DNA of 64,000 nt from Minisyncoccota bacterium (GTDB lineage Bacteria; Patescibacteriota; Minisyncoccia; Phycocordibacterales; DAORIS01): assembly GCA_035438625.1 (NCBI GenBank), contig DAORIS010000001.1, positions 56,104-120,103 on the forward strand, written 5' to 3'. The position numbers were made by a program, and so were the translations under genes. The notes beneath the pieces are model-generated. The model saw only the letters and a program-made list of their open reading frames with translations. It ran no database searches and had not been told where the DNA came from. The first letter of the stretch is position 1. Each line of letters opens with the position of its first letter. This document shows, piece after piece, positions 582-20,520 of this stretch.

Positions 582-582
582 C

Positions 583-610
583 TTGATTTTTTAATATTAT
601 GTGGTATAAT
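583..610 (+). promoter_or_regulatory. Sigma70-like promoter with extended -10 (TTGATT-16-TGgTATAAT) upstream of the ATP-grasp gene
   Basis: Read directly: cTTGATTttttaatattatgTGgTATAATac, 20 nt before the ATG at 631. Confidence 0.4.
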
Positions 611-630
611 ACACTAACCAAACTAATTTC

Positions 631-1995
631 ATGAGAATTCTATTCATTTCGAAAGATATGATTGCCGGTGACCTCTCGAGAAAACTCAAGGAAGAGGGTC
701 ATGATGTAAAGTTATTTATTGACACAAAAGACGGTAAACACTGTCTTGACGGCTTTGTTAATAAAACTCAAAACTGGAGAAGTGAACTTTCTTGGGTAGG
801 AAAAGAAGGCTTAATAGTATTTGATGATACTGGATACGGAAAAGTTCAAGACAAATTGCGCCAAGAAGGCTACGTTGTTTTTGGCGGATCAGAAATCGGA
901 GAAAAAATCGAGATTGATCGTGAGTACGGTCAGGAAATTTTCGCTCAATACGGAATAAAAACAGTGCCGCTGAAAGATTTTTTTGATGTAAGCGAAGCAA
1001 TTGAGTTCATTAAACAAAATCCAGGGAAGTGGGTTCTAAAACACAACGAACACCTTAATAAGCATTTGACCTACACCGGAATTCTTGATGATGGTAGCGA
1101 TGTAATTGATGTACTTGAAAATCATAGGAAAAATCACACATTGAGTGAAAAAACTATAACTTTACAAAAACTCTTAGAAGGAATTGAGATTGGAGTAGGA
1201 AGATTTTTTAATGGAAATGACTGGGTTGGGCCAATAGAAATGAATATTGAGCATACACGATTGTTTCCAGGTGATGTTGGTCCAATTACTAGTGAAATGG
1301 GTACATTAGCTTGGTATGATGATAGCGATTCAAATAAACTCTTTCAAGAAACACTTGCTAAGCTCAAACCATTCCTAAAAAGCACTGATTACCGTGGGGA
1401 TGTTGCAATTAATTGTATTGTAAATTCAGACGGCGCATTTCCACTTGAAGCAACTATGCGTCTCGGAACTCCTATAGTTCATCTACAATCCGAGATTCAC
1501 TCATCTCCATGGGGAGAATTTCTTCACGCAATAGCTTCCGGGGAAGAATATGATTTAAAGTGGAAAGTTGGATATGGTATTGCTGTTATGATCGCAGTTC
1601 CTCCGTTTCCATACGCACATAAATTGGGAAGATACTCACTAACTGGAGCAAGTATTTTTTGCAACTATAAACAAGGTACGAAAGAGGCCACACATATCCA
1701 TTTTGAAGAAGTTGGCATTAAAGATCACAAGCAATTGTACATTGCCGATTCTAGGGGTTACATTATGTATGCTACAAACATGGGCGACTCCGTAGAACAA
1801 GCAAGATCAAATGTATACAAAATCATTAAAGGGGTAAACATTCCACAAATGTTTTACCGAAACGATATCGGTTATAAATTTATCGTTGAAGATAAGATCA
1901 AGTTACAAAAATGGGGATACTTAAATAAGATTGAAAAAGTTGGGCATGAGAAAGTTAAGGGGGGAATTGAGTTTGATATATCAAAACTTTATTAA
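631..1995 (+). CDS. PurD-like ATP-grasp ligase (phosphoribosylamine-glycine ligase family, divergent)
   Basis: N-terminus [15 protein letters not shown]...EEGHDV matches the PurD pre-ATP-grasp start. [22 protein letters not shown] aligns to PurD [45 protein letters not shown] aligns to PurD [25 protein letters not shown]. 454 aa, longer than PurD. Confidence 0.55.
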   Translation: [454 protein letters not shown]

Positions 1996-2041
1996 CCTTA
2001 AAGCACCTATACTTCTACAGTATGGTGGTACAATTTAATTT

Positions 2042-2413
2042 GTGGAAATTAAAGATAAAATTTTTATAATCCTACTATTTGTTGCTTCAGTTTTAACTAT
2101 TTCTGCTGCATATAGTAGAGTGTACATAACAAAAGATTTTCTATTTACGATAGAAAGAGAGTGTTCTCCAGAGACAGAAAACTGTTTTGGATATGAATCA
2201 GAGGAAGGGGATACTATTTATTATAAGATACTTGAGGCCCCTGCCACACTCATAAACAATCAATGCGGAAACGATATAAGTAGCTGTGAAATTAGCTGCG
2301 ACGAATCAATTAAAAGTTGCAGATATATTTTTTGCACAGATCCCGATGCAGGAAAATATGGCGAGTGTTATTTAAATGAAGAAAACACAGATACACCTGA
2401 AACTTCTTTATGA
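2042..2413 (+). CDS. Small secreted cysteine-rich protein (GTG start; N-terminal signal/TM; 11 Cys)
   Basis: FIILLFVASVLTISAAYS signal-like segment followed by ECSPETENC...NQCGNDISSCEISCDESIKSCRYIFC...GECY. Stop overlaps the start of the next gene (ATGA at 2410-2413). Confidence 0.45.
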   Translation: MEIKDKIFIILLFVASVLTISAAYSRVYITKDFLFTIERECSPETENCFGYESEEGDTIYYKILEAPATLINNQCGNDISSCEISCDESIKSCRYIFCTDPDAGKYGECYLNEENTDTPETSL

Positions 2414-3462
2414 TAGATAAGGAATATGTAACTAAGATTTTATATATTGGATTAGATCCAGAAACTCCAATAGTAATTAATAAAAGGCCAATTCAAGTAA
2501 TAGGTGTTTCAAGCTTAGAATATTTCTCTTATCGTACCCTAAACCCGGCAAATTTATTATTTACCGCAACGTACAGGGCTCAAACAAACAAGATTAACAA
2601 ACGATTCACTCTATTTCTTTTTTGGCTATGGAAAGCAATTAGTTTTCTTTCAACATATCCATATAAAAAATATTCTAATTACCTATCTTTTTGTGTACTA
2701 AATTCTGTTCACATTATAGATGTATCTAACGAAGAGAGTACCCTAGATTACATTACTGAGAATCGCATTGAACTAATAGTAGTTAATAGTTGGTCAATAT
2801 TACCTCAAAAAATTGTTACAGCACCAACATTTGGCACATTAAACATACACCCATCAAAATTACCAATGTATAAAGGTGCATTACCTACACTTTGGTCTTT
2901 AAAAAATGGCGATTCCAAATCAGCCGTAACGTATCAAAAAATTGGCACGTTAATTGACGGTGGAGACATTATTTCTCAGTATGAATTTAATATCGATCCT
3001 ACCGACACTTCGCTGTCAATTGAGTTGAAGATTAGTCAAATTATTAAAAAAACCCTCTTTCAGGATATCCTTAACTATACAAATAAGAAAATTATTCTTA
3101 GACAACAACAAGGAATTGAATCGTGGACTGAAAAATATTCCCAATATATGCAAATTGATTGGGAACATGAAACATCAAAAGAAATTGCAGATAAAACAAT
3201 TTTATACCCTTTTCTGGAGCCTTTTTGTTATTGTTATAGCAGCATAAATGCTAATAAAGTTTACTTTAAGCGTCTTCGTGTACTACCAACACAAGGGAGA
3301 GGTACTTTTCAGCCTGGGCAATATATAATAAGAAATATGGGCATCGTTGTCACTACATATTCAGGAAATTTATTTGCAAGATTATTTATTGATGTACCTT
3401 TAAAAGATAGTCTTTTGCTGCTATTTAACAGTAATAGAAGGTTCGAAAAAACCACATTATGA
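2410..3462 (+). CDS. Formyltransferase-family protein (Fmt/ArnA/PurN-like N-domain plus C-terminal extension)
   Basis: LIVVNSWSILPQKIV...GTLNIHPSKLPMYKGALP matches the formyl_trans_N signature N-[IV]-H-P-S-L-L-P-x-[YF]-[RK]-G. Compare Fmt in this same window: LNIHPSLLPKYRGPSP. Translationally coupled to both neighbours. Confidence 0.6.
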   Translation: MIDKEYVTKILYIGLDPETPIVINKRPIQVIGVSSLEYFSYRTLNPANLLFTATYRAQTNKINKRFTLFLFWLWKAISFLSTYPYKKYSNYLSFCVLNSVHIIDVSNEESTLDYITENRIELIVVNSWSILPQKIVTAPTFGTLNIHPSKLPMYKGALPTLWSLKNGDSKSAVTYQKIGTLIDGGDIISQYEFNIDPTDTSLSIELKISQIIKKTLFQDILNYTNKKIILRQQQGIESWTEKYSQYMQIDWEHETSKEIADKTILYPFLEPFCYCYSSINANKVYFKRLRVLPTQGRGTFQPGQYIIRNMGIVVTTYSGNLFARLFIDVPLKDSLLLLFNSNRRFEKTTL

Positions 3463-5201
3463 CAACTTGCAACTTTCTTCCAGATCCAACATATCTTTTT
3501 TTTAGCTCAGAAGCACCAGTATTACTGTACTATTCACATTTTCCAGCAATAGCAATCACATTACTTCTTGGGTTGTTTGTATTTTTAAGCAATCGTACAC
3601 TTGCAAGTAAATTACTACTTACTATCTCGGTCTTACTTTCTGGATGGACATTACTTAATTTAATTGCATGGACAAACAATGTTGTTGAGAATGTATTATT
3701 TGTATGGTCACTGTTTGGATTAATGTATGGATTAATTTCTGTATTTTCTATATATCTTACTTATGTGTTCATACACAAGAATGATATTCCGTTAAGATAC
3801 AAAATTACATTTGGATTGCTCCTTTTACCAATTTTAATATTTACTTCAACAAAATTTAACCTGAGTGGTTTTTATTATGATCTTTGCGGAGCGTCAGGAC
3901 ATGAAAATGTTTACTTTTTAACGTACTACACTACACTTGGCATCATTTCGATGGTTTGGATTTTTGGACTACTTTTTAAGGCAATTAGAAGGTGCGATAC
4001 GCTTTTTAAAAAGCAAATTTTGCTATTTGGTATCGGTATAGAGTTATTCCTGTCATCTTTCTTTGTATCAAGCTTTCTTGCTAGTTACCTGAACGAGAAA
4101 GGACTTGTGTCTGACTACAGTTTAGAATTCTATGGTTTATTTGGAATGGTGCTGTTTATGGCATTTATTGCATTTATAATTGTTAGATTTAAAGCATTTA
4201 ACGTAAAACTTCTTGGTGCACAAGCCTTGATTGTGGCGCTGATAATTCTTATTGGATCGGAATTTCTATTTGTTGAGAACACATTAAACCAAGTATTAGT
4301 TTCTATTACATTAATTGTTACAGGAATAATCGGCATCGTATTGATTCGTAGTGTTAAGAAGGAAGATTTAGAAAAAGAGAAAATTGAGATGTTAGCAATA
4401 AGTCTTAAGGCAGCAAACGAAAGACTCGAGCGTCTCAACCAAGAGAAGACCGAATTCATCTCGCTTGCAACTCACCAAATCCGTGCTCCACTATCTGCAA
4501 TCAAAGGATACGCTTCACTCATCCTTGAAGGAGACTACGGAGAGACTTCTGATGATATTAAGGACGCAGTTTCAACCATGTACTCTTCTGCGCACAACCT
4601 TGTAGGTGTCGTTGGTGACTATCTCGATATCTCACGAATCGACCTTAACCGGATGAAGTTTAACTTCTCTGATGTTGATCTGAAGCAAACACTCTCAGAG
4701 ATCGTTAAGGAACAGCAACCAAACCTTCGTGGTAAGGGTCTTGAGCTACTCTGGCACCCAGACTCAAGCCTCGCAAAAACTGTTATTTCAGCCGACATTG
4801 GAAAGATTAAGCAGGTTATTAGTAACCTAATCGATAACGCGATTAAATACACTCCAAAGGGATCAATCACGCTTTCTCTTGCTAATGCTGCAAAACTTGA
4901 ACCTGGCACTAAGGGATTCAGGATCACGATCCAAGACACTGGTATCGGACTAAACGAACAGACAATACCTAAACTATTTAAGCGTTTCAGTCGTGCAGAC
5001 AGCGCTCATGAGGTAAACGTACATGGAACTGGTCTTGGACTATACCTCGCACGAAAGATGGTAGAGGCTCATAGTGGAAAAATCTGGGCTGAATCAGATG
5101 GAGAAGGAAAAGGTTCACGATTTATCATTGAACTTCCAGTAAAGGCAGAGCTTAGAGAGAATAGTTTGGCTGATGGAGAAGAGGAAGAAGGCAAAGTATA
5201 A
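3459..5201 (+). CDS. Sensor histidine kinase with polytopic (~7 TM) N-terminal sensor
   Basis: H-box EFISLATHQIRAPLSAIKGYASLI. N-box VISNLIDNAIKYT. G-box GTGLGLYLARKMVEAHSGKIWAESDGEGKGSRF. About seven hydrophobic helices in the first 300 aa. No response regulator adjacent. Confidence 0.85.
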   Translation: MTTCNFLPDPTYLFFSSEAPVLLYYSHFPAIAITLLLGLFVFLSNRTLASKLLLTISVLLSGWTLLNLIAWTNNVVENVLFVWSLFGLMYGLISVFSIYLTYVFIHKNDIPLRYKITFGLLLLPILIFTSTKFNLSGFYYDLCGASGHENVYFLTYYTTLGIISMVWIFGLLFKAIRRCDTLFKKQILLFGIGIELFLSSFFVSSFLASYLNEKGLVSDYSLEFYGLFGMVLFMAFIAFIIVRFKAFNVKLLGAQALIVALIILIGSEFLFVENTLNQVLVSITLIVTGIIGIVLIRSVKKEDLEKEKIEMLAISLKAANERLERLNQEKTEFISLATHQIRAPLSAIKGYASLILEGDYGETSDDIKDAVSTMYSSAHNLVGVVGDYLDISRIDLNRMKFNFSDVDLKQTLSEIVKEQQPNLRGKGLELLWHPDSSLAKTVISADIGKIKQVISNLIDNAIKYTPKGSITLSLANAAKLEPGTKGFRITIQDTGIGLNEQTIPKLFKRFSRADSAHEVNVHGTGLGLYLARKMVEAHSGKIWAESDGEGKGSRFIIELPVKAELRENSLADGEEEEGKV

Positions 5202-5229
5202 TTGCCTTTGAAAGATTTCGGCAAGAATA

Positions 5230-5754
5230 ATGCTGATAAAGATGCCAAAATATTTTTTACAATTAGGGTTCAGTTTGTATGCGACAATCGACAACATAAA
5301 ACAACCACAGTTTAGAAAATTGCTGTTCATTTTACTGTCTAAATATTTCCAAATATTGTTACTAGTTGCACCTTCTAGAAAATTCTCTATTTATCATCGA
5401 TTAGGTATCATTTCTCTTAGAAATAAGAATTTCAACAAAGCAGCCCATTACTCATCACGTATGGATACTCTTATTTCCTCAGAAGATGAGCATTCACGGT
5501 CATTGCTTTTTCATGCAAACGTTTTATTTGAGAAAGGAGAGTATCATGTGGCACTAAACGAATATTTTAACCTAATTAAAGTATCTAGATTTAAATCACT
5601 AATTCTTTCAAACATTGCATTTACATATGAAATAATTGGCGATGTTAGTAATGCTCAACTTTATGCTAAGAAATCAATTGAATTTTCAGCTTTAGAAAAA
5701 GATTTAGCACATACGATTGATCCATCTGAAAATCTAAAAAATTTGATCCAATAA
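5230..5754 (+). CDS. Hypothetical protein (TPR-like helical C-terminal half)
   Basis: ORF only. AT-rich, weak TPR-like pattern HANVLFEKGEYHVALNEYFNLIK...AFTYEIIGDVSNAQLYAKKSIEF. Confidence 0.3.
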   Translation: MLIKMPKYFLQLGFSLYATIDNIKQPQFRKLLFILLSKYFQILLLVAPSRKFSIYHRLGIISLRNKNFNKAAHYSSRMDTLISSEDEHSRSLLFHANVLFEKGEYHVALNEYFNLIKVSRFKSLILSNIAFTYEIIGDVSNAQLYAKKSIEFSALEKDLAHTIDPSENLKNLIQ

Positions 5755-5865
5755 CTTGACAACGTCTTTTGTAAAAGCTTTACTAATTCCAATCCATACT
5801 CCAATGAAGACACGAAACTAGTTTAATAGCTAAACCACCACGCAAGACGCGTTGGTATTTCGTGT

Positions 5866-7823: not shown

Positions 7824-8870
7824 ATGAGTGAGCCAGCAACACATCAGAATATAATCACTCTCTTTGGTGGCTCAAACGCTGAGCGACTAGTTTCAATTGC
7901 ATCCGCACAAAATGTATCAAGATTTATTGGCGGAGAAATTTGGTTCTGGGCAACTTCAGGAGAAATCTATAGCACACCACAGGAAGAACTTGAAGGTCAC
8001 AAAAACCCCTTTGTTTCAGAATTTCACCCGAAAGGAAAATTGTTATTCACTTCACTTGAGTCAGCATTAGATGACCCATCACTACAAAAACAGAAACCAA
8101 CTTTTTTCCTCGCCCTCCATGGAAAAGTCGGAGAAGACGGTGATGTTCAAAAGTTACTTGAAGAACGCGGGTATTCTTTTACTGGATCAAATTCAGTAGC
8201 GAGCAAGAATGCTTTCGAGAAAACAATTACAAACTCGATTGTTAAAAAGATGGGCATTAGAGTTCCACACTCTGCTACACGTAACACGAGCAACCTTACG
8301 CAATGTGCTCAGGTAATCACACAGATGTTACTGGCACACCAGTCACTCGTCCTTAAGCCCGTTGCAAGCGGATCAAGTGACGGACTATTTTTTGTTTCAA
8401 ATTTAGAACAACTAGAAGTAGCTATGAAGTCTCTTGCCCTTCGCCACAACGAAGAATTTCTTATTGAGGAAAGAATTTTTGGTACTGAAATTACAGTTGG
8501 GGTAATCGAAAGAAGTACTGGGCAAATTGAAATACTTCCTCCCACAGAAGTACGTGTAGATCTTGAGAAAACATTTGATTACGCAGGTAAATACCTAGGG
8601 CACGGTGCGGTAGAAATTACTCCAGCACAAATTTCTAATACTGATACAATAACCGCGCAAAATATCTCAAAGGATATTCATATCGCACTTGGCTGCAGAG
8701 GGTACTCACGAACAGATTTAATTTTGGACACAAAGGGTTTTGTATTCATCGAATTAAACACATTACCTGGACTAACAAACCAATCTTTTATTCCTCAACA
8801 ACTCGACGCTGCAGGCATTCCACTTCAAGCATTTATTGAAGAGCAAATTGCAATAGCACTACGTTCATAA
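7824..8870 (+). CDS. ddl: D-alanine--D-alanine ligase
   Basis: ATP-grasp Ddl pattern: FLALHGKVGEDGDVQKLLEERGYSFTGS N-domain and C-terminal GYSRTDLILDTKGFVFIELNTLPGLT. Confidence 0.8.
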   Translation: MSEPATHQNIITLFGGSNAERLVSIASAQNVSRFIGGEIWFWATSGEIYSTPQEELEGHKNPFVSEFHPKGKLLFTSLESALDDPSLQKQKPTFFLALHGKVGEDGDVQKLLEERGYSFTGSNSVASKNAFEKTITNSIVKKMGIRVPHSATRNTSNLTQCAQVITQMLLAHQSLVLKPVASGSSDGLFFVSNLEQLEVAMKSLALRHNEEFLIEERIFGTEITVGVIERSTGQIEILPPTEVRVDLEKTFDYAGKYLGHGAVEITPAQISNTDTITAQNISKDIHIALGCRGYSRTDLILDTKGFVFIELNTLPGLTNQSFIPQQLDAAGIPLQAFIEEQIAIALRS

Positions 8871-8937
8871 CCTGGACAAAGTGCGTTTTTAATGCCATTA
8901 TATTGACAGGCGTTATTTAACAGAAAGGAGGTATCCA

Positions 8938-9198
8938 ATGTCCGACACGCCAAACAAGCAAACCAGCCCGTATGACTGGTTTGCTCTAGAATTCACCAAG
9001 CATGTAGAGCGTGGTATAGAGTTAGTTGAGCGAGGTGGTACATCGGAAGATTACACTACTCAACACTACAATCTCATGCATCTAGAAAGTGCGGCGAAGG
9101 AAAAAGGACTTAATGATCAAGCGATTAGTATCGTGAAACATGAAGTCTTTGTGAAGTATGGCTTGATTGGAAAACGAGGATGCCATGGATGCACCTGA
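8938..9198 (+). CDS. Hypothetical small protein (first gene of the G+C-richer island)
   Basis: ORF with a strong SD (aaaggaggt) upstream. No recognised domain. Ends in a C-x-x-C. Confidence 0.35.
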   Translation: MSDTPNKQTSPYDWFALEFTKHVERGIELVERGGTSEDYTTQHYNLMHLESAAKEKGLNDQAISIVKHEVFVKYGLIGKRGCHGCT

Positions 9199-9269
9199 TC
9201 CAGCATAACCGGTTCTCTTTGCGGAGCACCGGTTATTTTTTCCAAATTACTTATTTGAAGGGAGTCTCT

Positions 9270-10121
9270 ATGGTTAGGTTCTTAACAAAAGCAGGTACTG
9301 TTGAACAACATCTTCTAACACTTGTTCGGTATTGTGGCATCCAAGTGCAAAACAACATTGCACCAGTTTCACTTTCTCGAACCCTTCAGGAAAAATGGAT
9401 TGTACGCAATGGGTCTGCACGTGACGGACTACCACCGAAAATGGAAGAGTACGATTTACTCGCAGATCTTGGTTTTTACTCAGACAGCGTAGTTCCATTA
9501 AGGCGGAAAAACGGTGAGGAAATCATCTTCGATCGTCGCATTTTAGTTCTAGGAACCACTCATCTACCTACCGCAAGGTCTCGGATCGAGTTCCTGGATC
9601 ACCAATATTCGAAAATTCCATCCGTTCCTGAAATACACCTTCTCACAAGTAGGAGGCCGATTTCAAAAGAAACAGTAATTGAAACATCCGAAACCTTCTT
9701 CGATAAGTCTCTTCAAACCATCAACGAGTTTCACGAAGACACATTCATGGAATTTGTGAGTAGAAAATTAATGTCTCACAAGACATGTATGTTCACACCG
9801 ATAGTTTCCGAAGGAGCTGATGTTGGCGATGATCGCGCGTACGCAAACACAGGCGACACCATCCTTACATGGCAGCGAAAAAGTGCGGTAGTTAAAGGAA
9901 ATTTCTTAATTTTCTCTAGCCAACCAACACTTGGGTATCAACTACTTCTGTGTAAGCGACTTCTACACAATCTGTGCCCAGACGTCAGATTATACGGAAT
10001 TGGACCAGCTGCTCATCCACTTATCCCGATGAAATATTTCCTTGATGTAATCGCTAGACAACTGTTTGAAGAAATTCAATACAGAGACTGTCTAGGGACA
10101 CAAACAACATCTGCGAAGTAA
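9270..10121 (+). CDS. Hypothetical protein (start chosen at MVRFL, which has an SD; the ORF is open from 9180)
   Basis: ORF in the G+C-richer segment. No recognised motifs. Followed by a hairpin plus T-run at 10132-10168. Confidence 0.4.
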   Translation: MVRFLTKAGTVEQHLLTLVRYCGIQVQNNIAPVSLSRTLQEKWIVRNGSARDGLPPKMEEYDLLADLGFYSDSVVPLRRKNGEEIIFDRRILVLGTTHLPTARSRIEFLDHQYSKIPSVPEIHLLTSRRPISKETVIETSETFFDKSLQTINEFHEDTFMEFVSRKLMSHKTCMFTPIVSEGADVGDDRAYANTGDTILTWQRKSAVVKGNFLIFSSQPTLGYQLLLCKRLLHNLCPDVRLYGIGPAAHPLIPMKYFLDVIARQLFEEIQYRDCLGTQTTSAK

Positions 10122-10131
10122 GATTCGAAGC

Positions 10132-10168
10132 AAAGCCCCTGAAACACCTGTTTCTAGGGCTTTTTCTT
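10132..10168 (+). terminator. Rho-independent terminator
   Basis: agcccctgaaac-acct-gtttctagggct followed by ttttctt. Confidence 0.5.
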
Positions 10169-10285
10169 ATACTCAGTTTTCCCTTGGAGAAAACTTGCTT
10201 TTTTAATACAAGTGTTGTATAATTTCTTGTCAGAAGCTGCCACAATGTGTGGCTGCAACATTCCTTGTCTTGAAAAGGAGCTCCC

Positions 10286-10930
10286 ATGTTTCGACAGATC
10301 GTATCCGTTGTGACCTGCGTTGCAGCCACTATATTCTCGTTCCTCTCGACCCAGTCTGCGCACGCGGCGCCCATTACGGCAACCATCACCGGTACCGGTT
10401 CTGGACAGCTCAAAACATCAGGTCCAGTTCCTTTCACTTCATTTACTCAAAAAGCATTTGAAGTGACACTTATTGGCGATACCTCCAGTGTCGAACTGGA
10501 AATATTGCCACCGATTGGACCCTGGCCGGCAATGAATGTGCAAATCATGCCAGCACTTGAAGCGACGCTTCGACTCAACAATGGCACCCCGTACGAGATC
10601 TCGAACCCAACTCAAGCATTCTACAATGAGCACTTCGGCATCGTTGGTTTCAGCAAGCTGACACCAGGCGGCGTAAACGACTTCCTCAACGTCGAAGCCG
10701 GGAGCGCATTAGTTGGGTTCTCATTCAATTCCAACGTGCTCGTGACTGACCCAACTCCTCCCGAGTGGACACTCGATTTCTTTGACCTGCAATTTTCAAA
10801 CGGCGGTCGAATCATTATGGATGACTTTACTGGATCCATGACGTTTCGAACAACCGGCGTCTCTCCTGAACCCAGTTCAGCACTTTTCGGGATTATGTGT
10901 GTACTCTTTACCCGCCGATCGAAGCGTTGA
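10286..10930 (+). CDS. Secreted PEP-CTERM sorting-domain protein
   Basis: N-terminal signal peptide ...FLSTQSAHAAP. C-terminus VSPEPSSALFGIMCVLFTRRSKR has a PEP motif, a hydrophobic helix and an Arg/Lys tail, which is the exosortase-dependent PEP-CTERM architecture. Segment is G+C-richer than flanks by inspection. Confidence 0.7.
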   Translation: MFRQIVSVVTCVAATIFSFLSTQSAHAAPITATITGTGSGQLKTSGPVPFTSFTQKAFEVTLIGDTSSVELEILPPIGPWPAMNVQIMPALEATLRLNNGTPYEISNPTQAFYNEHFGIVGFSKLTPGGVNDFLNVEAGSALVGFSFNSNVLVTDPTPPEWTLDFFDLQFSNGGRIIMDDFTGSMTFRTTGVSPEPSSALFGIMCVLFTRRSKR

Positions 10931-10963
10931 ATCCTCAAACGCACGACTGGTACAGAACCTAGA

Positions 10964-10990
10964 GCCGACCATGGATGGTCGGTTTTTTTG
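10964..10990 (+). terminator. Rho-independent terminator (hairpin ccgacca-tgga-tggtcgg plus T7)
   Basis: Read directly at 10965-10989. Confidence 0.6.
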
Positions 10991-11965
10991 TTGTATTATA
11001 ATCAGACCATGAAAGACACCCGAAAAACCCTCCTCTCAGGCGTAAAGCCGACTGGTAGACCACATATTGGAAATTACTTTGGAGCAATGAAACAGTTTGC
11101 TGATATGCAGCATGAGTTTAACTCGATCTACATGATCGCTGATTATCATGCACTAAACACAACACAGAGCAAAAATGAGATGCGAGAAAGCATTCTTGAT
11201 GTTGCGCTTGATTACTTGGCAATTGGACTTGATCCAAAAAAGTCAGTTATCTTTAAACAGTCAGATGTTTCAGCACATACTGAGCTCGCATGGATTTTTG
11301 ACACTCTTACAACCATGCCATATTTGATGCGCGCGCACGCATTTAAAGATGCTGAAGCAAAAAACAAGGAAATTAATGTTGGTACATTTAATTATCCAAT
11401 GCTCATGGCTGCAGATATTCTTCTATACGATGCAGATGTTGTACCAGTTGGACAAGACCAGAAGCAACACATTGAAATTGCACGCGACACTGCTGAGAAA
11501 TTCAATCGAGTGTTTAAAGAAGATGTGTTCACAGTGCCTGAGCCGTTAATAATGGAATCAGTGGCTGTTGTTCCCGGAACTGACGGACAGAAGATGAGCA
11601 AGAGTTATGGAAACACAATTCCACTTTTTGCAATACGCGAAGAGATTACTAAAGCAGTCATGAGTATTGTTACTGACTCTTCAGGTGGAGTTCCACAAAA
11701 CGTATACGCAATTCACGCACTTATCAAAGACAAACCATCACTTGATGCACTATATGAAGAGAAAGCAGGGAAGTATAAGGACCTAAAGGAAGCATTGATT
11801 GAAGACCTGGATGCCTTTATTGCACCCTTACGTGCAAGACGAGATGCACTTGCACAAGACGAACAATCTGTCATTTCTATCCTTACTGAAGGTGGAGAGC
11901 GCGCAAAAGCTATTGCGGAAGAGAAAATGAAGTTGGTCAGAAAGGCTATTGGTGTGACTTTATAA
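10988..11965 (+). CDS. trpS: Tryptophanyl-tRNA synthetase
   Basis: HIGH-type motif GVKPTGRPHIGNYFGA. KMSKS motif GTDGQKMSKSYGN. Class I Rossmann pattern. Confidence 0.9.
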   Translation: MLYYNQTMKDTRKTLLSGVKPTGRPHIGNYFGAMKQFADMQHEFNSIYMIADYHALNTTQSKNEMRESILDVALDYLAIGLDPKKSVIFKQSDVSAHTELAWIFDTLTTMPYLMRAHAFKDAEAKNKEINVGTFNYPMLMAADILLYDADVVPVGQDQKQHIEIARDTAEKFNRVFKEDVFTVPEPLIMESVAVVPGTDGQKMSKSYGNTIPLFAIREEITKAVMSIVTDSSGGVPQNVYAIHALIKDKPSLDALYEEKAGKYKDLKEALIEDLDAFIAPLRARRDALAQDEQSVISILTEGGERAKAIAEEKMKLVRKAIGVTL

Positions 11966-12031
11966 AAACTTTATCAAATCTTCATTTCTGATTTGGCAGA
12001 ATATCTGGATTAGTAGTGTAACGATCGTACA

Positions 12032-12301
12032 ATGCCAAGAAAAAGCACCGAGGAGCAAATTGAAGAACTAGCTCTAGCTGTCGGGAGAGGATTTGAGCAT
12101 ATGACAAATCTTTTTAACCAAAAATTTAAAGAGATAGATTTAAAATTTGCTGCTATTGATTTAAGATTTGATGCAATTGATAAAAGATTTGCTCTTATGG
12201 ATAAAAGGTTTGAGGTGATAGAGATAAGACTTGATAGCATTGAAAAGCGATTGGATAACATAGAAGAGCGTCTTGAACAACTAGAATTCAGATATAGCTA
12301 G
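12032..12301 (+). CDS. Small heptad-repeat (coiled-coil) protein
   Basis: KFKEIDLKFAAIDLRFDAIDKRFALMDKRFEVIEIRLDSIEKRLDNIEERLEQLE. The 7-aa periodicity shows up as imperfect 21-nt DNA repeats. Confidence 0.45.
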   Translation: MPRKSTEEQIEELALAVGRGFEHMTNLFNQKFKEIDLKFAAIDLRFDAIDKRFALMDKRFEVIEIRLDSIEKRLDNIEERLEQLEFRYS

Positions 12302-12324
12302 CAATTGACGATTATTACGATTGA

Positions 12325-12358
12325 AACCCCTCCAGACATACATGGAGGGGGTTTTTCT
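12325..12358. terminator. Bidirectional Rho-independent terminator (cccctcc...ggagggg plus T-run)
   Basis: gaaacccctccagacatacatggagggggtttttct. Confidence 0.6.
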
Positions 12359-12386
12359 GTACCATTAGGCTATAATTGCAACACAA

Positions 12387-13157
12387 ATGGCAGCATATAG
12401 CATTAAAACTGATGTATACGAAGGTCCACTTGAAGCACTCCTTGACCTCGTTGAAAAACGTAAACTGTTCATCAACGACATATCACTTGCCTCAGTTACT
12501 GACGACTTTATCGCATACGTAGAATCTCTTGGTGGTGGGAAACAAGAAGACGGCACTATGGTTTCTCCATATCCAATTGAAGAGACATCTGAATTTCTGG
12601 TCATTGCCTCAACACTTTTATTAATCAAATCACGATCACTCCTTCCAAACCTTTCTCTTACCGAATCAGAAGCAGCAGACGTTGAAGACCTGGAGGTACG
12701 GTTAAGGCTCCTTCAAACATTTAAAGAGGCAGCACAGGTATTAGGAAGTCATCTGAAAGGTGCTGGATATTGCTATGCACCACTAAACACCCGTGCGTTT
12801 CGTGCAGAACCACGCTTTTCTCCCCACAGCTCCTTGACCCTCCCTGGGCTTCTAGAAGCCGCCTGGAGGGCCATTTCCCTTGTGCCTAAGGTAGAAGAGC
12901 GGCCACAGGTAAATGTCAAAAAGGTGATCTCTCTCGAGGAAACAATTAGCCGGTTAGCAGAACGGGTCACCGCTGCGCTTTCAACAAGCTTTAGGGAATT
13001 CTCTGGGTATGGTACAAAGGAAAAGACTGATGTAATTATTGGCTTTCTTGCACTTCTTGAGCTTGTGAAGCGAGGGGTTATAATTGCCAAGCAGCACGAC
13101 CATTTTGCTGACATAACACTTGAGTCAGAAAAAGTATCAGTACCAAACTATGCATAA
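12387..13157 (+). CDS. scpA: Segregation and condensation protein A
   Basis: N-terminus YEGPLEALLDLVEKRKLFINDISLASVTDDFIAY is typical of ScpA. Overlaps scpB. Confidence 0.8.
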   Translation: MAAYSIKTDVYEGPLEALLDLVEKRKLFINDISLASVTDDFIAYVESLGGGKQEDGTMVSPYPIEETSEFLVIASTLLLIKSRSLLPNLSLTESEAADVEDLEVRLRLLQTFKEAAQVLGSHLKGAGYCYAPLNTRAFRAEPRFSPHSSLTLPGLLEAAWRAISLVPKVEERPQVNVKKVISLEETISRLAERVTAALSTSFREFSGYGTKEKTDVIIGFLALLELVKRGVIIAKQHDHFADITLESEKVSVPNYA

Positions 13158-13728
13158 TATGAAAGACGAATCACAAATTAAAAACATTTCCCAACTTGTT
13201 GAAGCATTGCTCTTTTGGGCTGCAGAACCAGTTCCCAAAGCAGAGCTACAGAAAAAGGTTGGAACATTTATTAATTCTGAAGTTACCGAAGAAGACCTTG
13301 CGCTTGCGCTTGCTGACATGGAAAGCCGTCTTTCTGCAATCGGATCTGCAATACGAGCAACAGTGAGTGAACAAGATGTAGAACTTCGTCTTTCAAGTGA
13401 TGTCTCAGATTTTATAAGCTCCCTTGAGTCAGGTGAGCGAGACCGCGACCTCGGAAAAGCTGGACTTGAGACACTTGCAATCATTCTCTATGAAAACGGA
13501 GCATCAAGAAGGCGTATTGAGCATGTGCGTGGAGTAAATGCACAATTTACCCTCCGTAGCCTACTCATGAGAGGATTGATCGCGAAGACTGAGAAAGAAG
13601 GGGAGCGAGGTGCACGATACATTGCAACCCCTGAGACATTTGCCTTTTTAGGTATATCATCAGCGGCAGACCTTCCAGAATTTACTGCTATTAAAGAAAA
13701 ACTCAATGCCGTCTCGGATAAGGAATAA
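13120..13728 (+). CDS. scpB: Segregation and condensation protein B
   Basis: Tandem winged-helix pattern VEALLFWAAEPV and LETLAIILYENGASRRRIEHVRGVNAQFTLRSLLMRGLI. Confidence 0.8.
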   Translation: MSQKKYQYQTMHNMKDESQIKNISQLVEALLFWAAEPVPKAELQKKVGTFINSEVTEEDLALALADMESRLSAIGSAIRATVSEQDVELRLSSDVSDFISSLESGERDRDLGKAGLETLAIILYENGASRRRIEHVRGVNAQFTLRSLLMRGLIAKTEKEGERGARYIATPETFAFLGISSAADLPEFTAIKEKLNAVSDKE

Positions 13729-14875
13729 GATTAGGAATCAGAAATTAAAATTTCCTAAAACTATTATTGATAGTGCATTTGTCTTGGGATTAATTATCGC
13801 TCCCGCAATTATCTTTGCATCTGAAAAAGTTGGTGGTATGGATAGGCTCGCTGGAGCATTTGGTTCACAAGCGAATATTCAAAATATTCAAACAGTATCT
13901 CAAGAACCTGAGATACAAGGACCAGAGACAATTATATACGTAGCTCCAATACAAGACATTGCGGAACAAACCCCGGTTGATCCAACACCTCTTCCAAATA
14001 TTGTTGTCGAGAATCAGGAACCACATTCTCCTATAATTCCCAAAAAGGAAATTGTTACAGAGGCACCCACAAAACCAACAGATCCATTTTCCAGTATCAC
14101 CCTACGTGCCGCTTCAGCAATTGTCTTTGATGTTGAGCACGACAAAGTAATATTTGAAAAAAACGCAGATACATCACGACCACTTGCGTCGATTACAAAA
14201 GTAGTTACTGCACTCGTTGCAGCTGAAGAAGCCAAGCGTGCAGAGGAAGCGGGTATTCCGGTACAACTTGCAATCCGTGCCGAAGACTTAGCACAAGATG
14301 GTGATAGTGGATTACTCCAAGGAGAATTATGGAATGTGGATAAATTGAGTGATTTAACACTCGTTGTTTCATCAAACGATGGTGCTGAGGCTCTTACACA
14401 AGTAGCGGGAGATAGGGGGACGTTTATTCAGCATATGAATGAATTAGTTTCGCGACTCAAGCTCTCATCAATGAGTTTTTTCAATCCATCAGGACTCGAT
14501 GAATCTACCAGTCGTGCGGGTGGCTACGGAAGTGCCCGAGATGTCGCAACATTATTCACTCACGTAGTTCGGTCAAAGGATCCGATTTTAGACGCAACTC
14601 GATACAAGACATTCTCTGTGGCAAGCGACACAGCTGCACATGATGTGAAAAACACAAACGCTGCCATTGGCTCAATTCCTGGCCTAATCGCCTCAAAAAC
14701 AGGCTACAGTGACCTTGCTGGAGGAAACTTGGCAGTTGCATTTGATGCTGGAATCGGAAGGATAGTTGTTGCAGTAGTGCTTGGTTCTACATATAGCGGC
14801 AGATTTGATGATATGCGTGCGCTCGTCGATGCGGTACTTCGCACGAGGGGTGAGTCAGTAGAATCAGGTATATAG
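13706..14875 (+). CDS. D-alanyl-D-alanine carboxypeptidase (S11, PBP5-like), N-terminal membrane anchor plus Pro/Thr-rich linker
   Basis: SxxK motif in RPLASITKVVTAL. SxN motif in VVSSNDGAEAL. KTG motif in IASKTGYSD. Confidence 0.75.
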   Translation: MPSRIRNKIRNQKLKFPKTIIDSAFVLGLIIAPAIIFASEKVGGMDRLAGAFGSQANIQNIQTVSQEPEIQGPETIIYVAPIQDIAEQTPVDPTPLPNIVVENQEPHSPIIPKKEIVTEAPTKPTDPFSSITLRAASAIVFDVEHDKVIFEKNADTSRPLASITKVVTALVAAEEAKRAEEAGIPVQLAIRAEDLAQDGDSGLLQGELWNVDKLSDLTLVVSSNDGAEALTQVAGDRGTFIQHMNELVSRLKLSSMSFFNPSGLDESTSRAGGYGSARDVATLFTHVVRSKDPILDATRYKTFSVASDTAAHDVKNTNAAIGSIPGLIASKTGYSDLAGGNLAVAFDAGIGRIVVAVVLGSTYSGRFDDMRALVDAVLRTRGESVESGI

Positions 14876-14890
14876 GCGTATAATCTCACT

Positions 14891-15226
14891 ATGGAAAAAT
14901 TTGAGCACATGGGCGAAAACGAAAGATCGGAACAAGATATTTTGATTGATAAATTTATATTCGACGACATCTCTGAAGATGAAATCGTTGCACTTATTGT
15001 TGAGAGAAATAGCCCTGATTTTAAAGAAAAGATACTTAAAGAAATCGATTTTGTAATCAGTGTTTATAATAAATCGAAAGACTTACCTCTAGATGGAGGG
15101 ATTGCACTTCCAAGTGATAACCCCGAGGAAGATGAAATGGCAACACAGGCCTGGGAAGAAGAATCGGAAGAGACGACTGAAAAACTCAATCGTCTCCGTG
15201 CACACTTAGAAAGAATAGTATTGTAA
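14891..15226 (+). CDS. Hypothetical acidic protein
   Basis: ORF only. Confidence 0.3.
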   Translation: MEKFEHMGENERSEQDILIDKFIFDDISEDEIVALIVERNSPDFKEKILKEIDFVISVYNKSKDLPLDGGIALPSDNPEEDEMATQAWEEESEETTEKLNRLRAHLERIVL

Positions 15227-15236
15227 CTAACATTTT

Positions 15237-16307
15237 ATGATTTCAGACGTCGTCAAAGTATTCCTGCCATTCATCATTTCATTTTGTATTGGTATTGCGA
15301 TCACTCCATTTTGGACACACTATTTGTATGCAAATAAACTATGGAAAAAGAAGGCGGGAAAACTAGCGTCTGATGGAACATCAGCAGTAGTCTTTAATGA
15401 AATCCACAAAGACAAAGAAGTTGGAACACCTCGTCTTGGTGGAGTAATTATTTGGGCAAGTGCAATTATCACCATCGCACTCTTTTGGTTATCAAGGTAC
15501 GTTCTCCCTGAAGGATTAGCAGCAAAGATAGACTTCCTCAGCCGAAGTCAGACATGGATTCCACTCGTTGCACTCATCATCGGAGCACTCATTGGATACG
15601 CTGACGACATGATGGAAATCAAAGGAAGTCGTGATCATCACGCTGGAGGACTATCACTTCGAAAGCGCCTCGCTATTGTTACCGCAATTGGACTATCTGT
15701 TGGAGCATGGTTCTTTTACAAACTTGATGTCGTTTCAATCGGCATTCCATTTTATGGACCACTTTTTGTTGGATTTTTAATCATTCCGATATTTATTTTC
15801 GTACTCCTTGCCATTTACGCGTCAGGTGTGATTGATGGAATTGATGGACTTTCTGGTGGAGTATTTGCATCTGCGTTTGCTGCATATGCTGGTATCGCAT
15901 TCTTCCAAGACCAATATGACATTGCAGCATTTTCAGCAACCATTACAGGAGGAATACTTGCATTCTTATGGTTCAACATTCCACCAGCCAGGTTCTACAT
16001 GACAGAGACAGGTAGCATGGCACTCACCATTACCCTTGGAATTGTCGCCTTCATGACCGACTCACTTGGAGGGGGGATAGGTCTTCTTATTCTACCTATT
16101 GTTGCACTTCCACTTGCTGTCACTGTCTTTACAAACGTCCTTCAGGTACTTTCAAAAAGGATCAGAGGAAAAAAGATCTTTCATGTTGCACCCATTCACC
16201 ATCATTTTGAAGCTCTGGGCTGGCCTTCGTATAAAGTGACGATGAGATACTGGATTATTAGTGTTGTTTCAGCGATTTTCGGTATTGTGATCGCTCTTTT
16301 GGCGTAA
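15237..16307 (+). CDS. mraY: Phospho-N-acetylmuramoyl-pentapeptide transferase
   Basis: GTPRLGGVIIW, DDMMEIKG...GLSLRKRL, GVIDGIDGLSGG and HHHFE motifs. Ten TM helices. Confidence 0.9.
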   Translation: MISDVVKVFLPFIISFCIGIAITPFWTHYLYANKLWKKKAGKLASDGTSAVVFNEIHKDKEVGTPRLGGVIIWASAIITIALFWLSRYVLPEGLAAKIDFLSRSQTWIPLVALIIGALIGYADDMMEIKGSRDHHAGGLSLRKRLAIVTAIGLSVGAWFFYKLDVVSIGIPFYGPLFVGFLIIPIFIFVLLAIYASGVIDGIDGLSGGVFASAFAAYAGIAFFQDQYDIAAFSATITGGILAFLWFNIPPARFYMTETGSMALTITLGIVAFMTDSLGGGIGLLILPIVALPLAVTVFTNVLQVLSKRIRGKKIFHVAPIHHHFEALGWPSYKVTMRYWIISVVSAIFGIVIALLA

Positions 16308-16558
16308 ATGGATGTTTAAGGTGGGTTCGAGTCCCTGACCCCCCAGCAAGCAAAGCTGAGCGGGTTAACAAGACAGGTGGTGGTGTAACGATTAGAGGTG
16401 AGCACCGTCTGGATCAACAAACTGCATCCAAATCAACAGATCGTTAGGTGAATCAAAGTTTTGGTTGTGGATAGCCCAATCTTTCTCCATACTGGAGATA
16501 TCACACACTGTTTATTCCCAAAAGGCATGTAGAAAATTTAACAGACATCACTACCGAA

Positions 16559-16825
16559 GTGTTCCTGGACCATCAGTATTTCCACAGATTGATCATAAAA
16601 CACATGTTGGATTTAGGATTAAAACATTCAGATGGGAAACCAATTGATCAATTTAATACTATGATCAGAGAAAGGTTTGAGGGAATTCCAGATGGTTCAA
16701 AATGCTATAAGCCAAAACACCTACACATACACCTTGTTCCTGACAAGGAAGGAGTTGATAGGTTTGTACTCGATGAAAGTGCAGTACACATTAATATTCA
16801 GAAAATTTCGCTATCTGTAAAGTGA
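16559..16825 (+). CDS. Hypothetical protein
   Basis: ORF only. Lies in the junction zone after mraY. Confidence 0.25.
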   Translation: MFLDHQYFHRLIIKHMLDLGLKHSDGKPIDQFNTMIRERFEGIPDGSKCYKPKHLHIHLVPDKEGVDRFVLDESAVHINIQKISLSVK

Positions 16826-17397
16826 TTCTAAGAATAACTACACAACGCATTCCCAAATTAACACTACGTAGAAAAGGTATACTACCTGGACCACACATGC
16901 ACCACATACAACTTATTAACTTCGAACATATCAAAGAGAGCGAAGCGTCAACATACACCTTTCGTGAAGCTGTCCGGGCAATAGTATTTGATGCAAATAA
17001 AAAGATAGCGTTACTTCATGCAAAAAAAGATAATTATTTCAAACTACCAGGTGGTGGCATAGAAAAAGATGAGGAAAAAATTGAAGCTTTAAAACGTGAA
17101 TGCAGGGAAGAGCTGGGATGTGAAATTGATATATTTTGTGATCTTGGAATTGTTACCGAAAACAGAAGTAAAAACAAAATGAAGCATATCTCATACTGTT
17201 ACATGGCACATGTTATAGGAGAAAAAGGAACACCACATATGACCGAGAGTGAAATTCGAGAAGGATTCCATGTTATCTGGATTCCAATTACAGAAGCTAT
17301 CTTAAAGTTAGAATCTGTTACAAACACCACATATCCTGGGTCATACATGGTCGCACGAGACCTCGCGTTTCTAAAAATAGGTTCTCATATTTCTTAA
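16822..17397 (+). CDS. NUDIX hydrolase (second copy; true start may be the internal Met at ~16897)
   Basis: Nudix box GGGIEKDEEKIEALKRECREELGC. Confidence 0.6.
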   Translation: MILRITTQRIPKLTLRRKGILPGPHMHHIQLINFEHIKESEASTYTFREAVRAIVFDANKKIALLHAKKDNYFKLPGGGIEKDEEKIEALKRECREELGCEIDIFCDLGIVTENRSKNKMKHISYCYMAHVIGEKGTPHMTESEIREGFHVIWIPITEAILKLESVTNTTYPGSYMVARDLAFLKIGSHIS

Positions 17398-17533
17398 GCA
17401 CTTAGGACAAGAACTTCGAGTAAGCTGTTGCCAAGATTGGTAATATCTGGTACTGTTTTTGCAGCATATCGTTAAATTTTTGGTTACGTTTGTAGCCGAT
17501 TAGCGAAAGCTGTCCTTTGTTTGGAGGCCTGCT

Positions 17534-17854
17534 ATGATTCGTCGCATTCTTGCGTCTCTGTGCATCTCCGTCCTTTCTGTCCTCTTCATCGTCGGCGCTA
17601 CACCCTCAACGGCTCAAGCAGCTGCGACCCAGGGGTATAACTACTCCTGTGGGGTTGATAATCCCAACAGCACGCAGTGTAGGCGCCAACTGTACCGTGA
17701 AATGCGGAGTTGCCAGCAGAAGATCGTCCAGGGTACACTCGTGTACTCCTGCGAACCAGTCAAAAAGGCCCTACTCGTATCAAATGATGTCGAGATAATG
17801 TTGAGCACGTTCGGCAGTGAAAACAGCAACACCGACGTTACCCCGGCCAGTTAG
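17534..17854 (+). CDS. Small secreted cysteine-containing protein (G+C-richer island)
   Basis: Signal peptide LASLCISVLSVLFIVGATPSTAQAAAT. Four Cys in the mature part. Confidence 0.4.
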   Translation: MIRRILASLCISVLSVLFIVGATPSTAQAAATQGYNYSCGVDNPNSTQCRRQLYREMRSCQQKIVQGTLVYSCEPVKKALLVSNDVEIMLSTFGSENSNTDVTPAS

Positions 17855-18007
17855 TCTCGGCGCAAAGCCAGGCCAAGCCTGGAAGTCAGTAGTTATTCCA
17901 AACTACTGACTTTTTTGTTCGCAGGACAAACAGTGTAGATATTGCTTTTTTTAATATTTGTGGTATAAATATTTTAAGAGTTCTCTGACAAACGTCAGGA
18001 ATATACG

Positions 18008-18970
18008 TTGAAATTGATTCCACCCTCTAACTCGGGAGTTGTCATGTACAACCAGAAACCAGTAATTGTTGCTGTAATTCTCTTTGTGATATGTGCCATA
18101 ACAATAGGTATGGCAACAGTGATGAGCTACCGCCATAGACCCAAACTTACACTCTCAGACAACTCAGTTGTTGTCGGTAAGTCTGTGTCAGACATCGGTC
18201 GTTATGGCGAACCTGGATATGAATACCTACAGGTTCGCGACCTGGAAGCCAAGCGAGTGTATAAGACACTCACCATGTCGCCCGTAAGTGCAGATCCAGC
18301 GAAACTTGCACCATTGTTTGAGGACTTGATTCGTAGTGAACTTAAGAAGCGTCCAGCTGTTGCACACTATGTAACAGTGAAAATGTTTCAAGAGCTACGA
18401 TCAAAAGTTGCCCTCGTCATTGCAAGTGATAGTGGAATGACACGAGAAAATTATGTCAGCCACTTTCCAGGAGCAAGACCACTACCACCAGAATCTGTTG
18501 TGATGCCGGAAGGCAAAACACCTGAAATGCTTTTCAACGAATTTTACGATGAGAAGTTATCCTCAGGCGTACAACTGCGTTCAATCTGTCTCGATCCAAA
18601 GTCCGTTGCGCTATCTTTCAATTGGTATCGTCTTCCAGATGATGTCCGGCAAGGGTTACTCGATAAGAGTGACCAATACCCAGCATCATTTCTTGGAATG
18701 AACGTTGCGTCAGCGCGAGGTTTCGTGTTTTATCGAAACCCAAACTACGAAGCGCTCATGAAAAAGCAAGCTGAGGTTCTATGCTTCAGTGGTAGCTTCA
18801 TTGTTGAAAGCAACGCACTCGTAACTGGACCAGACGGCAAAGAAAATTATGACAGATATCCTCTGAACATGACCTTTGTGTTTGATCCTGAGACGAAAGA
18901 ATGGTGGCTGGAACATGTCGAGCGAACCGTAAGTGTAGTTGCGAGTAACCAAAAAATCATGGTCAATTAA
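18008..18970 (+). CDS. Hypothetical N-terminally membrane-anchored protein
   Basis: TM helix VIVAVILFVICAITIGMATV followed by ~280 aa with no recognised motif. G+C-richer. Confidence 0.4.
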   Translation: MKLIPPSNSGVVMYNQKPVIVAVILFVICAITIGMATVMSYRHRPKLTLSDNSVVVGKSVSDIGRYGEPGYEYLQVRDLEAKRVYKTLTMSPVSADPAKLAPLFEDLIRSELKKRPAVAHYVTVKMFQELRSKVALVIASDSGMTRENYVSHFPGARPLPPESVVMPEGKTPEMLFNEFYDEKLSSGVQLRSICLDPKSVALSFNWYRLPDDVRQGLLDKSDQYPASFLGMNVASARGFVFYRNPNYEALMKKQAEVLCFSGSFIVESNALVTGPDGKENYDRYPLNMTFVFDPETKEWWLEHVERTVSVVASNQKIMVN

Positions 18971-20325: not shown

Positions 20326-20360
20326 CCACGTCAGTTCTTGTTTGTTCTTTTTTACAGCTT

Positions 20361-20400
20361 AGGCCCCAGACGCATATGCGCCCGGGGCTTTTCTTTTCTT
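20361..20400 (+). terminator. Rho-independent terminator after the DUF1559 gene
   Basis: ggcccc-agacgcatatgcgcc-cggggc followed by ttttcttttctt. The inner cgcatatgcg is itself palindromic. Confidence 0.5.
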
Positions 20401-20520
20401 GTAAACCCAATCTTTTTGCTAGTATATCGAACTGAAGATTTAGATGTATATGTAAAGGAGATAATAGAAAAAGACCCATACGCGATTGTGTCATAAACAC
20501 TTCGCATACGGGTCAATTTG

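Follow-up and report, generated by a model that had tools for sequence, protein, structure and literature searches.

We analysed a 64,000-nt stretch of DNA, called the window below, from a metagenome-assembled genome (MAG) that NCBI names as Candidatus Paceibacterota, within the candidate phyla radiation (CPR). The subject is a gene between ddl and trpS that encodes a predicted secreted protein with a C-terminus resembling the PEP-CTERM signals of exosortase systems. An earlier note on the same DNA had placed two unknown proteins and a secreted protein between these flanking genes, and this was confirmed: three open reading frames (ORFs) are present, flanked by ddl to the left and trpS to the right. 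The first two are referred to as orfA and orfB, and the third as the PEP-tail gene. The features of the locus, in window coordinates, are as follows.

7824–8870: ddl, left neighbour of the three ORFs
8938–9198, + strand: orfA, ORF of 86 aa without a signal peptide
9205–9242, + strand: terminator-like hairpin with U-tract 3' of orfA (−16.7 kcal/mol, z −4.5)
9270–10121, + strand: orfB, ORF of 283 aa; the JGI gene call gives the same coordinates
10127–10172, + strand: terminator-like hairpin with U-tract 3' of orfB (−16.8 kcal/mol, z −4.1), kept in the related contig L008
10195–10223, + strand: promoter-like site read from the sequence, TTGCTT, 17 nt, TATAAT (the latter at 10218–10223)
10236–10280, + strand: 5' leader with two small hairpins by folding, the second of which pairs UUCCUU with the AAGGAG Shine–Dalgarno sequence
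10286–10930, + strand: PEP-tail gene, ORF of 645 nt and 214 aa, the protein ending in ...GVSPEPSSALFGIMCVLFTRRSKR
10286–10366, + strand: predicted Sec-type signal peptide, residues 1–27 (MFRQ, hydrophobic core, ...SAHA/AP), read from the sequence and from helix 2–26 of the structure model
10367–10864, + strand: passenger domain of about 165 aa, a small all-beta barrel
10865–10930, + strand: PEP-CTERM-like tail, with PEP (residues 194–196), 13–14 hydrophobic residues including an invariant Cys, RRSKR and the stop
10961–10993, + strand: intrinsic terminator 3' of the PEP-tail gene, an 11-bp stem followed by a T-run (−16 kcal/mol, z −3.8)
11009–11965: trpS, right neighbour of the three ORFs

The N-terminus of the PEP-tail protein is kept in P0003 (MFRRIASIVACLAAT), its homologue in L008, a related Paceibacteria contig. 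This conservation favours the start ATG at 10286 over the shorter gene calls of NCBI (132 aa) and JGI (206 aa), and because both of these calls are truncated, the predicted signal peptide had been hidden. The AlphaFold2 model of the protein is confident, with a predicted local distance difference test (pLDDT) score of 91.9. When the three ORFs were scanned with Pfam, NCBIfam and PADLOC, no match was obtained; for the whole 214-aa protein this held in Pfam and NCBIfam at E ≤ 10, and neither of these databases has a model for the passenger domain. The tail, SPEPSSALFGIMCVLFTRRSKR, is laid out as SPEP-SSALFGIMCVLFT-RRSKR-stop, and residues 197–212 are helical in the model. The very end of the protein thus consists of PEP, a transmembrane (TM) helix and a cluster of basic residues, in this order, which is kept in P0003 and in P0002, the homologue in a second contig, L001.

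The tail had been described as a textbook PEP-CTERM signal, which overstates its fit to the curated models. The whole protein was unmatched, and the isolated tail scored 14.1 bits on PF07589, under the cut-off of 20.7, and was not among the matches listed for TIGR02595. P0002, in the same test of the PEP-CTERM domain models, gave 12.7 and 10.3 bits. The tail is a divergent, sub-threshold PEP-CTERM tail that is homologous to true ones. When 1.84 billion cluster representatives were searched exhaustively with HMMER, 57 proteins were retrieved, mostly of about 200 aa and with end-to-end matches. PEP is present in the tail of 46 of the 57 family members, as VPEP in 34 of those, and other members carry exosortase signals of the VPLP or IPTL type; 31–32 of the 57 match TIGR02595 or PF07589. 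With hhalign, the window tail was aligned with the VPEP consensus columns of the family. One member, P0012, is a PEP-CTERM protein of Tautonia plasticadhaerens (Planctomycetota). The contigs that carry distant members have a G+C content (GC) of 0.55–0.68, and their contexts (L009, L010, L091 and the P0017 contig) showed no adjoining exosortase and no shared gene order.

Three family members (P0004, P0026 and P0013) align with NF033554, the floc_PepA model, over about 170 residues that make up its C-terminal two-thirds, although below its cut-off; the best score, that of P0004, was 52.8 bits against a cut-off of 80, and neither the window protein nor P0003 had a match. PepA is a flocculation-associated PEP-CTERM protein of Aquincola and Zoogloea; its overexpression allows an rpoN1 mutant of Aquincola to form flocs again (PMC9850573). 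It resembles the family in being a small secreted PEP-CTERM protein. Apart from the low scores, the two differ in that PepA genes are RpoN-dependent and located near prsT in Betaproteobacteria, whereas nothing of that kind is shown for the window gene. The whole window protein, with its tail, is homologous to a family of small PEP-CTERM proteins that has PepA as a distant relative.

Close copies were found three times only in the searched collections: the window protein, P0003 and P0002. They share 33–50% identity as well as the signal peptide, domain and tail; P0003 is 50% identical to the window protein and P0002 35–38%. In a neighbour-joining tree, these three Paceibacteria copies formed an exclusive clade. 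L008 has the order NUDIX-ddl-orfA-orfB-PEP-trpS-x-scpA-scpB in common with the window, while in L001 the gene for P0002 lies directly 3' of ddl, without orfA and orfB, and has a terminator of the same kind after it. All three tails have PEP, AL, G, the mid-helix C and R unchanged, and conservation is higher in the tail than over the entire protein (8 of 22 columns invariant vs 51 of 214). None of 80 other GTDB Paceibacteria species or loci, with trpS 64–74% identical, had ddl, orfA, orfB or the PEP-tail gene 5' of trpS (0/80). A profile scan of the GTDB representatives with the three-sequence alignment returned no relative. Neither did a scan of JGI metagenome contigs with the same profile, which is little informative, having missed even the known JGI contigs.

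A possible misassembly had been raised by the earlier note, and a chimera in which a fragment from a GC-richer organism had been joined into a Paceibacteria contig would agree with the local jump in GC at the segment and with the end of one Logan contig inside the PEP-tail gene, at window position 10820. However, the window DNA was the same, with 0 mismatches, as JGI contig 3300014059 Ga0119868_1000020 (118.7 kb) and two SRR1145916 Logan contigs; the ddl-orfA-orfB-PEP junctions were bridged by a Logan contig, and identical proteins (PLF31_00350 and PLF31_00355) were present on an NCBI MAG contig of 140 kb. The junctions also recurred, at diverged sequence, in L008, in an L008 twin from a second sample and in L001. 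With 0 mismatches over the junctions in two assemblies of different origin and a gene order common to relatives, misassembly is excluded, and we attach practically no probability to a chimera.

The earlier note had also described terminators flanking the gene and a promoter of its own. All three genes are followed by a stable hairpin with a U-tract (−16 to −17 kcal/mol, z −3.8 to −4.5), in agreement with the former, and the same hairpin as the PEP-gene terminator is located 3' of the homologues in L008 and L001. The promoter fared less well. Its TATAAT is perfect, and the block ACTTGCTTTTTT...TTGTATAAT of the promoter-like site is kept in L008, but the −35 element, TTGCTT, is weak; a consensus promoter scan made no call because this element fits at 3/6 positions only. 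A sigma-54 box 5' of the gene, TGG-N9-TTGC by eye, was considered and rejected because its spacing is wrong. The ribosome-binding site is AAGGAG. In the leader, a G-C pair of the first stem is replaced by A-U in L008, so that pairing is retained, and in L001 the place is taken by another hairpin, of 6 bp; these hairpins are weak, with energies no better than those of shuffled sequences (z −0.5 to −1.5). The homologues and the confident model show the PEP-tail gene to be real and conserved, and these sequence features give it a transcription unit of its own.

The note had further described the DNA from 8.9 to 11.0 kb as G+C-richer than the flanking ddl and trpS. The segment 8880–10990 has a GC of 0.451, compared to 0.421 for the whole window, and belongs to the top 2.3% among windows of the same size, and the quoted GC-rich run gcgcacgcggcgcccattacgg was found at about 10359. 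The PEP-tail gene itself has a GC of 0.507, which ranks within the top 0.24% for windows of 645 nt. For each gene, the G+C content at third codon positions (GC3) was compared with that expected if the protein were encoded with window-average synonymous codons. The PEP-tail gene had an observed GC3 of 0.528 against an expected 0.326 (z 5.6). For orfA (GC 0.444), the values were 0.43 and 0.357 (z 2.0), a mild rise, and for orfB (GC 0.425) 0.364 and 0.34 (z 0.7), which is background. The description thus holds for the PEP-tail gene but not for orfB, and only mildly for orfA; the compositional "island" is one gene, not 2.1 kb. Since GC3 exceeds the expectation under the window's synonymous usage, the anomaly lies in codon choice and not in amino-acid content alone. 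The G-ending and CpG-containing codons GCG, CCG, ACG, TCG and GTG are enriched in the gene and avoided by the window's ribosomal-protein genes, while the C-ending codons TTC, CAC, AAC, ATC, TAC, CTC and GGC are enriched in the gene and raised in ribosomal-protein genes too, among which the L27 gene has a GC3 of 0.51. The codon usage of the PEP-tail gene is foreign to the genome.

The visual contrast of the segment is partly due to an unusually AT-rich left flank. Positions 1–5800 (GC 0.30–0.37, GC3 0.23–0.32) contain an EamA transporter, GARS, a formyltransferase-like gene and the start of a histidine kinase gene, and this block departs further from the window mean than segment 8880–10990 does, in the opposite direction.

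In L008 and L001, the PEP gene has a GC3 of 0.59 and 0.63, respectively, with neighbouring genes at about 0.27–0.31. Conserved genes of the window and L008 are 83–96% identical at the protein level. The identity at four-fold sites in excess of random was 0.03–0.45 between the window and L008 and 0.04–0.09 between the window and L001; four-fold sites between the lineages are largely to fully saturated.

No gene for a processing enzyme was found nearby, as the earlier note had stated. The called genes from 9.3 kb to the left of the window to 9.9 kb to its right, about 83 kb, included no exosortase (PF09721), archaeosortase or sortase, and ten unannotated proteins, among them all the unannotated polytopic ones, gave no exosortase or sortase match when rescanned at E ≤ 1. 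No exopolysaccharide (EPS) locus was seen in the 83 kb, and the PEP-type tail was the only one among all ORFs of the 64-kb window. A regular expression for the exosortase motif CSG...N..R, applied to the multi-TM ORFs of some 1.07 Mb of Paceibacteria sequence, gave no candidate, which is a weak test. In the literature searched, no link between exosortases and CPR was found. Two neighbouring genes were considered as parts of a PrsK/PrsR/PrsT set and rejected. For the histidine kinase at 3459–5201 (+), which has an unannotated N-terminal domain with nine predicted TM segments, as PrsK, there were only generic kinase matches among the best 25 listed; the 170-aa tetratricopeptide repeat (TPR) protein at 5242–5754 (+), as PrsT, scored 15 bits against a cut-off of 312. 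Among the matches listed near the gene, there were none above cut-off to TIGR02916, TIGR02915 or TIGR02917, the models for PrsK, PrsR and PrsT.

A horizontal origin is the best reading of the PEP-tail gene because a protein with a predicted signal peptide and a tail of the PEP-CTERM class is combined with foreign codon usage, with a PEP-CTERM family whose few placeable members come from larger, GC-richer non-CPR genomes and with no exosortase in view. The horizontal acquisition suggested by the earlier note is therefore retained as to origin, given the foreign codons, the PEP-CTERM family and the GC-rich non-CPR genomes of the few placeable members; the recent island is not. An island newly acquired by this organism, whether the single gene or the 2.1 kb, would account for the contrast in composition with ddl and trpS and for the separate terminator of each gene. 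The transfer was not recent, however, because the gene occupies the same place 3' of ddl in two diverged relatives and is equally GC3-rich there despite the saturation. The ddl genes of L008 and L001 are only 55–68% identical to that of the window, orfB is compositionally native, and no integrase, tRNA or repeat was found at the borders of the segment; neither Rfam nor tRNA scans placed an RNA gene or a tRNA site for integration in its vicinity. A recent acquisition is accordingly very improbable.

We consider it probable, with moderate confidence, that this is a lineage-specific surface-protein gene, gained horizontally long ago by the ancestor of the clade from a G+C-rich bacterium with a PEP-CTERM/exosortase system and inherited vertically thereafter. 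In the simplest account, a high-GC donor with PEP-CTERM proteins would have passed the gene once to the ancestor of a small Paceibacteria clade, and it would have been inherited vertically since then in its place 3' of ddl. Most likely, its product would be exported by the Sec pathway, the signal peptide would be removed after AHA, and a beta-barrel of approximately 165 residues would come to lie outside the cell, with the short C-terminal helix presumably holding the protein in the cytoplasmic membrane and the Arg/Lys tail inside. CPR cells are in general regarded as having no outer membrane, and for this reason the product would be a membrane-anchored protein on the cell surface.

Several observations weigh against this history. 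The tail falls under the PEP-CTERM cut-off in both curated models, its conservation is that of three sequences only, and there is no exosortase and a single PEP-type tail within the 83 kb. For the donor, there is a single family member with an organism name to go by. Finally, a high GC3 after about one to three synonymous turnovers fits neutral amelioration only marginally and requires a donor GC3 near 0.9; by our own estimate, neutral decay from such a value over 1–1.5 turnovers per lineage would leave about the remaining excess. The marginal fit implies that selection on the gene's own composition may contribute.

Taken further, selection could be the whole explanation: the gene would be native, or its origin irrelevant, and its G+C-rich codons would be kept for very high expression or for a property of the mRNA. 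The persistence of the GC3 excess in three lineages with largely to fully saturated four-fold sites speaks for this, as do the C-ending codons shared with ribosomal-protein genes, the GC3 of the L27 gene and the layout of a monocistronic gene with a perfect −10 element, a strong terminator and a 5' hairpin. Ribosomal-protein genes, however, have only C-ending codons raised, whereas the G-ending ones are up in the PEP-tail gene, which counts against simple translational selection. The gene is also missing at this locus in the 80 other Paceibacteria and has no relative among the GTDB representatives, and all other detectable relatives have exosortase-type tails and, where there is context, lie in GC-rich contigs. 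We regard selection as the sole cause as unlikely.

The favoured history, an old transfer, leaves two fates for the tail. The invariance of P-E-P in three saturated lineages hints, tentatively and at the level of sequence, that the tail may still be recognised by an exosortase- or archaeosortase-type enzyme encoded elsewhere; otherwise, it would be a plain anchor. If a cognate enzyme of this family is encoded elsewhere in the genome, the protein would be cleaved at PEP and then attached or released. The A-L, G and Cys positions are as invariant as P-E-P, the tail is the more conserved part of the protein, and an unrelated passenger carries an AVPEP...RYRRSRR tail in a Nomurabacteria MAG (L048). 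Archaeosortases act in cells without an outer membrane. On the other side stand the lack of an enzyme and of a second tail in the 83 kb, the empty result of the weak motif search in about 1.07 Mb and the silence of the literature searched on exosortases in CPR. By the published rule, PEP-CTERM proteins occur in genomes that also have an EpsH homologue, EPS genes and an outer membrane, and in most cases in many copies, with a median of eight such proteins (PMC1569441). The window also encodes another C-terminally anchored protein without the motif, at 26059–27480. We hold sorting by such an enzyme to be a genuine possibility without favouring it.

The 473-aa protein at 26059–27480 (+) has a single C-terminal hydrophobic helix followed by IRSKS, with the tail ...LGVLTIVLMIIRSKS and no sorting motif; it was assigned to no family and gave a weak F5/8 type C match of 19.7 bits.

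Compared with known systems, the gene resembles those of the PEP-CTERM/exosortase system (EpsH, XrtA; PMC1569441) in its predicted signal peptide, C-terminal Pro-Glu-Pro, short hydrophobic helix and basic cluster, in being a single-gene transcription unit with a long upstream spacer and a passenger with little homology to known proteins, and in the alignment of its tail with the canonical VPEP tails of family members. It differs in the sub-cut-off score on PF07589, in Ser/Thr for Val before PEP and in the Cys within the helix. The host, moreover, is a CPR bacterium regarded as lacking an outer membrane, with one copy and no EpsH homologue in the 83 kb, and neither a sigma-54 box nor a PrsK/PrsR/PrsT set was identified at the window locus. 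Archaeosortase A with PGF-CTERM (TIGR04126) belongs to the same superclass of sorting signals and works in cells without an outer membrane, and the P0002 tail reached 22.2 bits on its model against a cut-off of 24.5. The window motif, however, is PEP and not PGF, the window tail had no match to this model, and no archaeosortase was seen in the about 83 kb. Plain C-terminally anchored (type I) proteins likewise combine a signal peptide and a domain outside the cell with a single C-terminal helix and a basic stub in the cytoplasm, but the hydrophobic stretch of 13–14 residues in the window protein is short for a stable anchor, and a conserved PEP is not required of a mere anchor.

Descriptions of PEP-CTERM/exosortase sorting are limited to bacteria that have an outer membrane and EPS genes (PMC1569441). 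On one reading, the range of this sorting system would reach ultra-small bacteria lacking an outer membrane, as archaeosortases do in archaea; on the other, the gene would clearly exemplify a sorting signal that, once transferred, came to serve as a simple anchor. A foreign composition kept for at least one full synonymous turnover bears on the dating of transfers by GC anomalies. Against the importance of these points, the subject is one small hypothetical gene, and that CPR genomes take up genes by transfer is a familiar observation.

The L048 protein mentioned above is encoded at 1702–2442 (+) of that contig, from Candidatus Nomurabacteria MAG MFD01223.bin.1.26, next to a NUDIX gene. It is a secreted protein of 246 aa ending in AVPEPATSVTFIGGIVMLLRYRRSRR and scored 15.1 bits on PF07589, below the cut-off; only the tail is in common with the window family. 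This was the sole further tail of the kind in some 1.07 Mb of Paceibacteria sequence.

Nine kb from the PEP-tail gene, a gene at 19465–20325 (+) encodes a protein of 286 aa that matches the prepilin N-methylation motif PF07963 (25.9 bits), DUF1559 (PF07596; 34.2 bits vs a cut-off of 23.3) and the H-X9-DG model TIGR04294 (21.9 vs 19). Its GC3 is 0.47, compared to about 0.36, and the JGI call (215 aa) loses the pilin-like N-terminus. The DUF1559/H-X9-DG family is massively expanded in Planctomycetota and Verrucomicrobiota, and the gene is probably a second import from a donor of that type, which also speaks for the transfer history of the PEP-tail gene. Together, the [S/T]PEP...C...RR tail in three lineages, the Nomurabacteria VPEP protein and the DUF1559 neighbour would fit repeated capture from PEP-CTERM-bearing neighbours or hosts. 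A more far-reaching proposal, which we consider quite speculative and improbable, is that either Paceibacteria without an outer membrane run sorting of the exosortase/archaeosortase type, or an episymbiont displays a captured PepA-like floc-matrix protein in order to embed itself in the matrix of its hosts.

The two remaining ORFs of the segment are conserved in L008 only, at 41% identity and in the same position for orfA and at 51% for orfB, and both are absent from L001. Neither had a family or defence-system match in Pfam, NCBIfam or PADLOC. A word-index homology search with orfB returned only itself, comparison with the PDB sequences gave nothing at E < 0.9, and its single-sequence AlphaFold2 model was unusable (pLDDT 30). 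Both are dispensable for explaining the PEP-tail gene.

The left neighbour, ddl, is only 55% identical between the window (7824–8870) and L008 (7544–8584), compared to 79–96% for its neighbours (ABC-F 79, TrpS 88, ScpA 94 and MraY 96); either it evolves fast or one of the lineages has had it replaced. At 1.2 to 10.6 kb past the right end of the window, contig L007 carries at 11140–20534, on one strand, genes for a large serine recombinase, a helix-turn-helix (HTH) protein, a GmrSD/HNH nuclease, an EcoRI-type methylase, Fic and a protein with a metallo-beta-lactamase fold, a cluster that looks like an integrated mobile or defence island. Within the window, the 640-nt stretch 17400–18040 has no called gene and no Rfam match for the 106-aa ORF that it contains at 17534–17854 (+). 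This ORF has a signal peptide and several Cys residues, and with a GC of 0.53 its GC3 of 0.63 is the maximum of the window.

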